NCBI GenBank assembly: GCA_000004695.1
Contig: CM000155.2
Location: 2,240,001 to 2,304,000, forward strand
Length of the DNA: 64,000 nt
Reading direction: 5' to 3'
Origin: Dictyostelium discoideum
Lineage: Eukaryota
The notes below the pieces were generated by a model, which was given only the letters and a program-made list of their open reading frames with translations, did not search any database and had not been told where the DNA came from. Positions 29,065 through 29,866 of the stretch are shown piece after piece (the stretch's first letter is position 1; every line of letters begins with the position of its first letter). A program made the position numbers and the translations under genes.

Positions 29065-29866
29065 ATGTCAGAAGGAGATTGTAGGTTTATTTAGTTAATA
29101 AATAAAAAAAAAAAAAAAAAAAAAAAAAAATCAAGTGTTTCTAATTTCATTTTTAAAAGTAGGTTTTGCATCTTTAGGATTAAATGAACAACTAATAAAT
29201 AATATAAAACGATATGGAATTACAAAATTAACACCTTTTCAAATGGAGGTAATAAAAGAAATTAAAGAAAACAGTAATGTTATTGTTGATTCAATTGAGG
29301 GCACAGGTAGGACAATAAGCTTAATTATTGGTACATTAGATAAGATTGATGAAACAAAACAACAACAAGAACAAGAACAACAAGAACGACAACAAACAGA
29401 TCAACAATTTTCATTTCCTCAAATTTTAATGATCTTACCAACAAAAGAGTTATCACAAACAACAAAAGTTATTTATTCATCTTTAGGAGGTGGTGAGAAT
29501 AATAATAATGACTTTAAAGTACTATCATGTATTGGTGGTGTAAAAATATCAATGGATATTGAAATTTTAAAAAAAGGTAATACTCAGATTTTATTAGGTA
29601 CACCAGGAAGAATATCTGACCTATTTTCAAGAAAAAGGTTCGATACAGATAATATTAAAATATTGGTTTTCGATGAACTTGATGAAATCCTTTCAAGAGG
29701 TTTTGAATGTCAATTGGAAGATATTATTAAACCTCTAAATAATAACAATAATTTGCAAATTATTGTTTCAACATCAGGAATTAACGAATTAACTTCAAAT
29801 TTTATAAATACTTTTATAAAGATTCCAAAGATCATTAAATCACAACAAGAACCATATAAATTTTAG
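29065..29866 (+). CDS. eIF4A-like DEAD-box helicase N-terminal (RecA-1) domain-only protein with degenerate catalytic motifs. There is a tentative 16 nt first exon at 29065..29080 (MSEGD), and the main exon is 29160..29866.
   Basis: GFASLGLNEQLINNIKRYGITKLTPFQMEVI aligns with eIF4A [30 protein letters not shown]. Walker A reads EGTGRT instead of SGTGKT, and the DEAD box is DELD. Motif III reads STS instead of SAT. The ORF ends (…EPYKF*) without the C-terminal helicase domain. The track ORF has no ATG (GTG start). An upstream ATGTCAGAAGGAGATT|GTAGGT donor and TTTTAAAAG| acceptor would join in frame, but this exon is speculative. Confidence 0.5.

Follow-up and report, generated by a model that had tools for sequence, protein, structure and literature searches.

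A selectively maintained, single-lobe eIF4A-like putative pseudo-helicase in Dictyostelium discoideum

Why would a genome keep a gene for half of a DEAD-box helicase, and a half in which the catalytic motifs are altered? This question is raised by a locus in a stretch of 64,000 nucleotides of Dictyostelium discoideum DNA (contig CM000155.2, positions 2,240,001 to 2,304,000 of the forward strand, hereafter the window), where a two-exon gene on the + strand, at window positions 29065–29866, specifies a product of 240 amino acids (aa). The gene is already catalogued in UniProt, RefSeq, and Swiss-Prot as Q54CH6 / XP_629440 / EAL61006, under the names "Putative eukaryotic initiation factor 4A-like protein" and "DEAD-box RNA helicase". 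The gene model is thus public, and what we add is its description as an eIF4A-derived protein that consists of the first RecA-like domain (RecA1) only. Its only clear relative is a one-domain protein of 233 aa from Dictyostelium firmibasis (KAK5580818.1), to which it is 58–64% identical. On balance, we favor the view that the gene encodes a selectively maintained pseudo-helicase that acts as a noncatalytic binding module for a putative partner. An earlier note, made from the letters of the window alone, had described the gene as an eIF4A-like pseudo-helicase with one RecA-like domain and had given its coordinates exactly; the ATG lies at 29065, and the TAG ends at 29866.

Domain content and gene structure

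The Pfam DEAD/DEAH profile (PF00270) matches residues 29–209 of the protein with 91.8 bits (cut-off 26, E 5.1e-26), and Pfam profiles give no match in the protein to Helicase_C (PF00271), the family of the second RecA-like domain (RecA2) with motifs IV, V, and VI. When the chains of the PDB are searched with phmmer, human eIF4A-I (5zbz) comes out on top at 91.6 bits (E 5.4e-25), with yeast eIF4A at 89.9 bits and eIF4A-III at 83 bits, whereas other DEAD-box subfamilies reach no more than 70 bits (CshA, DDX21, Dhh1, and DDX3X come next with 60–68 bits), and the eIF4A group leads them by 13–20 bits. The label "eIF4A-like" is justified because eIF4A-I, yeast eIF4A, and eIF4A-III outscore the other subfamilies. 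From an alignment of 30 sequences, AlphaFold2 produced a model with a mean predicted local distance difference test (pLDDT) score of 84.7 and a predicted template modeling (pTM) score of 0.85, with low confidence only at the termini and in two low-complexity insertions. The top Foldseek matches of this model are crystal structures of isolated eIF4A DEAD domains (2g9n, 5zbz, and 7ddx), with target-normalized TM scores of 0.86–0.89 (0.87 for 2g9n). The model shows a complete RecA1 fold that ends at the inter-domain linker, without RecA2. The single eIF4A-like domain of the earlier note is therefore upheld by the Pfam match to DEAD without Helicase_C, by the rank of eIF4A among PDB chains, and by the lack of a RecA2 exon described below, and the RecA1 fold that it had proposed to check by modeling is recovered.

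The comparison with known helicases defines both what is shared and what is missing. Identity to eIF4A-I / TifA (human eIF4A1, 2g9n and 5zbz; yeast Tif1, 1qde and 1fuu) is 28–30%, at 89–92 bits, and the Q motif, G-x-G, PTxEL, GG, TPGR, and D-E-x-D follow each other in matching order and spacing across the N-terminal RecA1. Unlike eIF4A-I, the Dictyostelium protein has no RecA2, carries Arg in place of the Walker A Lys, has a motif III that is not SAT, contains two low-complexity insertions, and is about half as long; its score against the DEAD profile is ∼60% of that of canonical relatives. The core of the eIF4A subfamily comprises two domains and ∼400 aa and binds eIF4G or another MIF4G cofactor, whereas the Dictyostelium protein has one domain and 240 aa. 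Almost as close as eIF4A-I is eIF4A-III / Fal1 (2hxy and 2j0s; 83 bits and, when aligned by Foldseek, 30% identical), from which the protein differs in identical respects. Canonical eIF4A of D. discoideum is encoded by a gene of its own, tifA (DDB_G0269192).

A RecA2-encoding exon that annotation had missed would change this picture. The C-terminal parts (185 residues) of 33 full-length eIF4A-like proteins served as tblastn queries, and no RecA2-like coding sequence was found downstream of the gene (E ≤ 10). Across the 64-kb window and 20 kb of the D. firmibasis locus, the only significant match is the Helicase_C domain of an unrelated SNF2-family gene (window 16513–16812). The gene is followed by a flank of 9% GC with an AATAAA, an opposite-strand open reading frame (ORF) of 108 codons, and a U3 gene, in this order. 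We therefore reject a missing domain-2 exon, and the truncation stands; the stop after domain 1 that had been read from the sequence lies 7 residues past the last strand of RecA1.

The gene itself is made up of the following parts.

29065–29080, + strand: exon 1, 16 nt (ATG plus 13 nt), encoding MSEGD and the first base of codon 6
29081–29159, + strand: intron, 79 nt, GT..AG, 12.7% GC
29160–29866, + strand: exon 2, 707 nt, with the whole DEAD-box RecA1 domain and the TAG stop at 29864–29866

The window is AT-rich (22.8% GC, with long A/T tracts), and both exons stand out from their surroundings in base composition: exon 1 has 37.5% GC versus 10.6% upstream, and exon 2 has 26% versus the 9% of the 3′ flank. 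The ATG of exon 1 is the only one from which an open frame leads via a GT..AG intron into the long ORF. The start and first exon had been regarded as uncertain, and this holds insofar as three acceptors keep the frame, at 29135 (248 aa), 29159 (240 aa), and 29162 (239 aa); the range has nevertheless been narrowed. Acceptor 29135 is used in the reference model of strain AX4 (XP_629440 / EAL61006 / Q54CH6, 248 aa), whereas acceptor 29159 yields exactly the 240-aa GenBank entry KAM9944501.1. At the splice junction, this form runs collinear with its D. firmibasis counterpart (MSEGDLGFASLGL versus MSEEGDIKFKSLGL), so that 29159 appears to be the best candidate by collinearity, with 29135 and 29162 likewise in frame. 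A look-up of the exact products of alternative ORF forms in the databases gave no match. The 3′ end is the same in three independent annotations, namely those of AX4, of a second D. discoideum assembly, and of D. firmibasis. No paralog of the gene is present within the 64-kb window.

Motifs, distribution, and selection

The motifs are listed below with positions in the 240-aa model. Their conservation was scored over 30 aligned sequences, of which 28 are full-length relatives.

29216–29242, + strand: Q motif GITKLTPFQ, aa 25–33, with the upstream aromatic Phe8 at 29165–29167
29291–29314, + strand: motif I (Walker A) SIEGTGRT, aa 50–57, with Arg56 (AGG, 29309–29311) in place of the invariant Lys
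29351–29407, + strand: Q/E-rich low-complexity insertion, aa 70–88, between motifs I and Ia
29438–29455, + strand: motif Ia PTKELS, within FPQILMILPTKELSQTTKVIYSSL, which is ∼84% identical in D. firmibasis
29528–29542, + strand: GG doublet (CIGGV), with Gly131 invariant in 30/30 aligned sequences
29597–29611, + strand: motif Ib GTPGR, with T153, P154, G155, and R156 invariant in 30/30
29672–29683, + strand: motif II DELD, aa 177–180 (DEVD in D. firmibasis)
29768–29776, + strand: STS at the position of motif III, aa 209–211 (SVS in D. firmibasis), register uncertain by one residue
29825–29866, + strand: last RecA1 strand PKIIKS, a 7-residue tail (QQEPYKF), and the stop, ending where eIF4A has its inter-domain linker

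All of the motifs that the earlier note had aligned with eIF4A (Q, I, Ia, Ib, II, and III) are present as described there. Gln33 of the Q motif and the upstream Phe8, which correspond to its pattern of an aromatic residue followed by G-a-x-x-P-T-x-I-Q, are shared by the two Dictyostelium species and at least 24 of the 28 full-length relatives. In motif I, the reported loss of the Walker A Lys is real and extends to the second species: 27 of the 28 relatives have Lys at this position of the A-x-x-G-x-G-K-T pattern, whereas D. firmibasis reads RIEGTGRS. Its Arg codon is AGA rather than AGG, and the arginine itself has therefore been held across a synonymous difference. The Q/E-rich insertion, which is absent from eIF4A, is 9 aa shorter in D. 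firmibasis and is modeled with a pLDDT of 55–58. Motif Ia is an RNA-backbone contact motif of DEAD-box proteins. Motif II had been counted as degenerate, a description of which only part survives; Ala is indeed replaced, but Asp177, Glu178, and Asp180 are kept, and because both acidic catalytic residues of D-E-x-D remain, DELD is a variant that fits DExD, though not strictly DEAD, and not a broken motif. The replacement of SAT by STS was correct in substance. HMMER pairs VST with SAT and MAFFT pairs TSG with it, and SAT appears in no register.

By sequence, the real departures from a DEAD-box helicase are K56R, motif III, and the missing second domain; put in terms of hallmarks, the protein lacks RecA2, the Walker A Lys, and SAT. 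These changes are not scattered. In RecA1, 34 positions show conservation of 85% or more across the 28 full-length relatives; both Dictyostelium species keep 22 of these, and in 10 both depart from the family. The kept positions include Phe8, Gln33, Gly53, Gly55, Pro99, Leu103, Gly131, GTPGR, Asp177, Glu178, Asp180, and Gly-Phe186-187, and no change affects the Q motif, GG, TPGR, or D-E-x-D. Those changed in both (K56R, A104S, Q106T/A, the motif III block, G43, F60, and P199) are concentrated in motif III, at the end of motif Ia, and at K56R, that is, at catalytic or coupling positions. This pattern is one of directional remodeling at such positions with retention of the fold and the RNA-contact motifs, and not one of random decay.

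The D. firmibasis gene allows the question of maintenance to be addressed. It is syntenic with the D. discoideum gene, as both lie between two U3 small nucleolar RNA (snoRNA) genes with a SNF2-family gene further upstream. It too has a short first exon, followed by an AT-rich intron of 81 nt at the equivalent place, and its protein shows matching departures (GTGRS / DEVD / SVS) and a stop right after RecA1. We computed the non-synonymous (dN) and synonymous (dS) divergence over 223 aligned codons. The Nei–Gojobori method (NG86) gives a dN of 0.22, a dS of 0.81, and a ratio (omega) of 0.27, LWL85 gives an omega of 0.40, and maximum likelihood gives 0.06, for an overall range of 0.06–0.40. The excess of synonymous over non-synonymous differences is significant (Fisher p = 6e-12), and identity at codon positions 1, 2, and 3 is 78%, 86%, and 60%, with second positions the most conserved. 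The two genes are separated by at least six indel blocks, all of them in frame. At this base composition, a stop is expected about every 10 random codons, and the probability of a random open frame of 235 codons is ∼7e-11. The gene also persists between two direct repeats of 98% identity, from which it could potentially be deleted by recombination. The two-species comparison shows an intact protein-coding gene that appears to be kept under purifying selection in D. discoideum and D. firmibasis. A pseudogene, which the earlier note had left open, is unlikely because the frame is open in both species, the indels are in frame, and omega is 0.06–0.40; we reject it on the dN/dS ratio, the codon-position pattern, and the in-frame indels, and the conserved 5′ intron also disfavors it. 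The comparison with an ortholog that the note had called for thus found the frame, the 5′ intron, and the altered motifs preserved in D. firmibasis.

The range of the gene is narrow. An exhaustive HMMER profile search over 1.84 billion representative proteins, alongside which a word-indexed search was also run, returned 18,311 DEAD-box relatives, of which the D. firmibasis protein alone exceeded, as a genuine counterpart, the score that is generic for eIF4A. Higher-scoring matches (P0032–P0035) were rejected as orthologs, as these are gene models in which eIF4A is fused or repeated in tandem and matches the profile in several stretches. No other dictyostelid ortholog was found among the representative proteins, and it therefore seems that no other annotated dictyostelid proteome carries the gene.

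RecA1-only ORFs do occur in other protists. Willaertia magna has two near-identical eIF4A-like copies of 235 aa (KAL9649299.1 and KAL9657223.1) that read GTGKT / DQLD / YSL, Entamoeba marina has one of 228 aa (KAL7719283.1) that reads GTQRT / DEIE / TSS and also has Arg for Lys, and a metagenomic cluster (P0053) has one of 229 aa that reads DTNKT / DELD / FSE. Two of these were placed on their contigs.

E. marina contig (L002), 3001–3687: RecA1-only ORF, complete and intronless
W. magna contig (L003), 3001–3708: RecA1-only ORF, complete and intronless

The neighbors at both loci are unrelated, and no RecA2 lies downstream. These ORFs resemble the Dictyostelium protein in their altered motifs and in ending at a common inter-domain boundary (NPNIIKL in D. 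firmibasis, DPIRIIL in Willaertia, and NPLEIIVE in E. marina, each followed by the stop). They are not orthologs, however, since none is appreciably closer to the Dictyostelium protein than to canonical eIF4A. We rejected a common origin with the Willaertia and Entamoeba proteins, as pairwise scores do not support it and the E. marina copy is species-specific, with its own full-length eIF4A as its best match and no ortholog in other Entamoeba. Truncated eIF4A paralogues thus arise sporadically. Among these cases, the Dictyostelium gene is the only one for which the sequences compared here show persistence under selection. A literature search for described RecA1-only eIF4A paralogs turned up nothing relevant. 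The earlier note had called such a protein unusual; the altered single-domain protein is real, but it was already in Swiss-Prot and RefSeq, and RecA1-only ORFs appear sporadically in protists.

Flanking U3 genes and the wider window

On both sides, the gene is bordered by a U3 gene (called with Rfam RF00012) that is embedded in a 300-nt direct repeat. These and the tRNA genes of the window are located as follows.

28527–28826, + strand: upstream repeat copy, 300 nt, with a U3 snoRNA gene at 28599–28807 (Rfam, 90.1 bits) and an upstream TCCCATAATT box
30730–31029, + strand: downstream repeat copy, 300 nt, with a U3 snoRNA gene at 30802–31010 (Rfam, 90.2 bits)
D. firmibasis locus (L001), 9499–9758 and 11248–11499: U3 repeat copies
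18615–18686, + strand: tRNA-Cys(GCA)
46132–46204, + strand: tRNA-Gln(TTG)

The repeats are 98% identical within D. discoideum, and the order U3–gene–U3 is conserved in D. firmibasis. The U3 copies within a species share species-specific substitutions, unlike positional counterparts in the other species, and this indicates concerted evolution (gene conversion) of the repeats. The TCCCATAATT box is invariant in 4/4 U3 copies, ∼60–70 nt upstream, and resembles the Dictyostelium upstream sequence element of non-coding RNA genes.

Around the U3–gene–U3 block, synteny with D. firmibasis is broken. The SNF2-family gene (window 15266–16920; L001 6365–7771) lies ∼1.7 kb upstream of the first U3 gene in D. 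firmibasis and ∼11.5 kb upstream in D. discoideum, where the intervening segment (∼17000–28500) holds the tRNA-Cys gene and a phosducin-like gene of 316 aa at 27210–28332. Within the latter, an (ATT/AAT)n-type tract at 27805–27975, which would read as poly-Ile on the minus strand, separates the coding blocks 27210–27839 and ∼28000–28332 and is probably an intron. The downstream neighbors in D. firmibasis (a VMP1-like gene and an ABC transporter) are not in the window. The 108-codon ORF between the gene and the downstream U3 gene (29986–30312, − strand; MSSDSNKSYLLYF…, coiled-coil-like) is annotated as a gene in the second D. discoideum assembly. A tblastn comparison with the D. firmibasis locus gives no match to it, and it may therefore be species-specific or spurious. 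Further along, at ∼51400–63100, the window contains an array in which a unit of ∼3.0–3.1 kb is repeated in tandem three to five times with 85–96% identity, and two Class I RNA genes lie inside it at 55180–55240 and 58172–58230 (Rfam RF01414). Periodic coding repeats of 9–15 nt occur near 52500–52900 and 54600–54800.

A proposed function and its alternatives

The protein would descend from an eIF4A-type DEAD-box helicase of which the N-terminal RecA1 alone is now encoded. In DEAD-box proteins, ATP hydrolysis and high-affinity RNA clamping require RecA1 and RecA2 to close into a cleft, to which RecA2 contributes its motif VI arginines. The Lys of the P-loop is required for catalysis, and its replacement by Arg in P-loop nucleoside triphosphatases (NTPases) usually spares binding more than hydrolysis. 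With RecA1 alone, Arg56, and no SAT, the protein is predicted to have no RNA-dependent ATPase or helicase activity; this catalytic deadness we infer from the Lys to Arg replacement and the missing motif VI. Nucleotide binding is a different matter. Isolated DEAD domains bind adenine nucleotide and crystallize with ADP or AMP, and such ADP- or AMP-bound domains appear among the Foldseek matches of our model. Since isolated domains bind and the residues for adenine recognition and phosphate binding are kept, as are the Q motif, G-x-G, and D-E-x-D, the protein may possibly bind adenine nucleotide as well, and the conservation of motif Ia, GG, and motif Ib suggests that its RNA-facing surface still matters.

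A static binding module of this kind would offer a partner protein, or else single-stranded RNA, the surface that eIF4A has on its N-terminal domain. More speculatively, it might thereby titrate or scaffold a factor whose usual contact is this domain in an eIF4A-family helicase, in line with the decoy that the earlier note had suggested. There is precedent for DEAD-box descendants with such roles. Utp25, which is DEAD-box-derived and has degenerate or dispensable helicase motifs, is a structural component and has been described as the "first fully validated pseudohelicase" (PMC9539457), and MUT-15 is a DEAD-box-like pseudohelicase that acts as a scaffold (bioRxiv 10.64898/2026.09.04.749402). 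We propose a scaffolding or titration role because both precedents are scaffolds and not motors. The likeness of Utp25 / Def to our protein is that of a conceptual precedent for a noncatalytic DEAD-box descendant, as Utp25 has both RecA-like domains, is essential, and is found eukaryote-wide, whereas the Dictyostelium protein has one domain and is limited to two species.

Several observations weigh against a selected binding module. The selection argument comes from one species pair in which dS is near saturation, and the fast evolution of the protein (dN 0.2) would also fit weak constraint. The scores against the DEAD profile are 92 bits for D. discoideum and 76 bits for D. firmibasis versus ∼150 bits for canonical eIF4A. 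The main known contacts of eIF4A-family helicases with their cofactors (the MIF4G domains of eIF4G, CWC22, and CNOT1) lean mainly on RecA2, and a RecA1-only decoy might therefore bind poorly. The GTGRT/GTGRS loop is presumed to bind nucleotide. No publication naming Q54CH6 or the protein was found in the literature, no transcript or peptide support for the gene was obtained, and Q54CH6, EAL61006, and XP_629440 are absent from that part of a life-cycle proteome supplement which lists tifA.

Some of these points would equally suit a decaying relic, that is, a truncated duplicate of eIF4A without function whose frame is open by chance or has been released from constraint recently. Such a relic could have lost its second domain, acquired altered catalytic motifs and low-complexity Q/E and N insertions, and diverged fast from canonical eIF4A; its very narrow range (D. 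firmibasis only, among 1.84 billion representatives), the species-specific look of the comparable truncated E. marina copies, and the lack of expression support in the literature and in the part of the proteome supplement just mentioned would follow the same line. We nevertheless consider a relic unlikely. Omega is well short of the ∼1 expected of it, the Fisher p of 6e-12 and the conservation of second codon positions speak for coding constraint, ∼235 codons have stayed open in both species (p ∼7e-11) with every indel in frame, and the intron, the start, and the domain end are conserved in a gene that survives between 98%-identical direct repeats. An annotation artefact, in which a full-length helicase has further, overlooked exons or the ORF is part of a different transcript, seems scarcely credible to us: the tiny 5′ exon, the three possible acceptors, and the disagreement of database models (248 versus 240 aa) leave some room for it, but no RecA2 coding sequence exists in the 64 kb or in the 20 kb of the D. 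firmibasis locus, the SNF2 gene aside, and the 9%-GC flank with its AATAAA, the opposite-strand ORF and U3 gene beyond it, and the end shared by three annotations all close the gene at the same place.

Two further alternatives give the protein a more specific task. As a split helicase, it would find a RecA2 in trans, either in a separately encoded protein of that type or in some other DEAD-box protein, and so restore an ATPase that is active or subject to regulation. In favor of this idea, conservation of the Q motif, G-x-G, D-E-x-D, Ia, GG, and Ib goes beyond the apparent need of a pure protein-binding scaffold; yet both species have fixed the Walker A Lys to Arg replacement as well as a motif III other than SAT, neither genome has a RecA2-only gene nearby, and we know of no precedent for trans-complemented DEAD-box cores, all of which makes the idea very improbable. 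The U3 neighbors raise the other alternative, a degenerate DEAD-domain protein of the small-subunit (SSU) processome akin to Cms1 or Utp25, which would act in ribosome biogenesis. Cms1 is small and has just one P-loop-like domain, which is degenerate; Cms1 / CMSS1 (PF14617), a subunit of the U3-containing 90S pre-ribosome, represents a family of ∼250 positions with weak similarity to the GG–TPGR–DExD segment of DEAD domains. The conserved order U3–gene–U3, which has outlasted rearranged outer flanks in both species, fits this alternative, and there are weak Pfam matches to CMS1, with 18.7 bits for the D. discoideum protein and 26.9 bits for that of D. firmibasis, and to the NTPase-like domain of UTP25 (16.7 bits). 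Both are under the curated cut-offs of 35 and 27 bits, and we rejected membership in Cms1 as well as in Utp25 (PF22916 / PF06862), for which there is also no Utp25_C match. Since canonical full-length eIF4A-like proteins give equally weak matches to CMS1 (17–19 bits), the signal represents generic cross-similarity within the DEAD family. Gene adjacency is weak functional evidence in eukaryotes, and SSU-processome factors are broadly conserved, whereas this gene occurs in two species, so we regard this alternative as quite improbable. A link between the conserved position of the gene and the nucleolus or SSU processome could still be appended to the broader proposal described next, as a more speculative extension of it.

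The noncatalytic binding module that we favor can also be cast in a broader form, in which eIF4A-derived half-helicases with RecA1 only would be recurrently evolved trans-acting regulators in protists, able to bind nucleotide but dead for hydrolysis (Lys to Arg), and competing with or scaffolding eIF4A cofactors or RNA; the Dictyostelium gene would then be the first with evidence of purifying selection. We hold this generalization to be doubtful. The stakes are modest because the gene is limited to two closely related species and has no link to a phenotype. One practical consequence is that the RefSeq name "DEAD-box RNA helicase" overstates the capacity of the protein.

These findings support the notion that the RecA1 lobe alone can be useful, as a selected descendant with this lobe only and a fixed Lys to Arg replacement in its P-loop would demonstrate, most probably as a binding surface for nucleotide, RNA, or partners of eIF4A. 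Should the protein truly serve in nature as a decoy for eIF4A cofactors or as a dominant-negative, it would be the natural counterpart of engineered fragments of the eIF4A N-terminal domain and would offer a simple, genetically tractable handle on the regulation of translation initiation or ribonucleoproteins in Dictyostelium.

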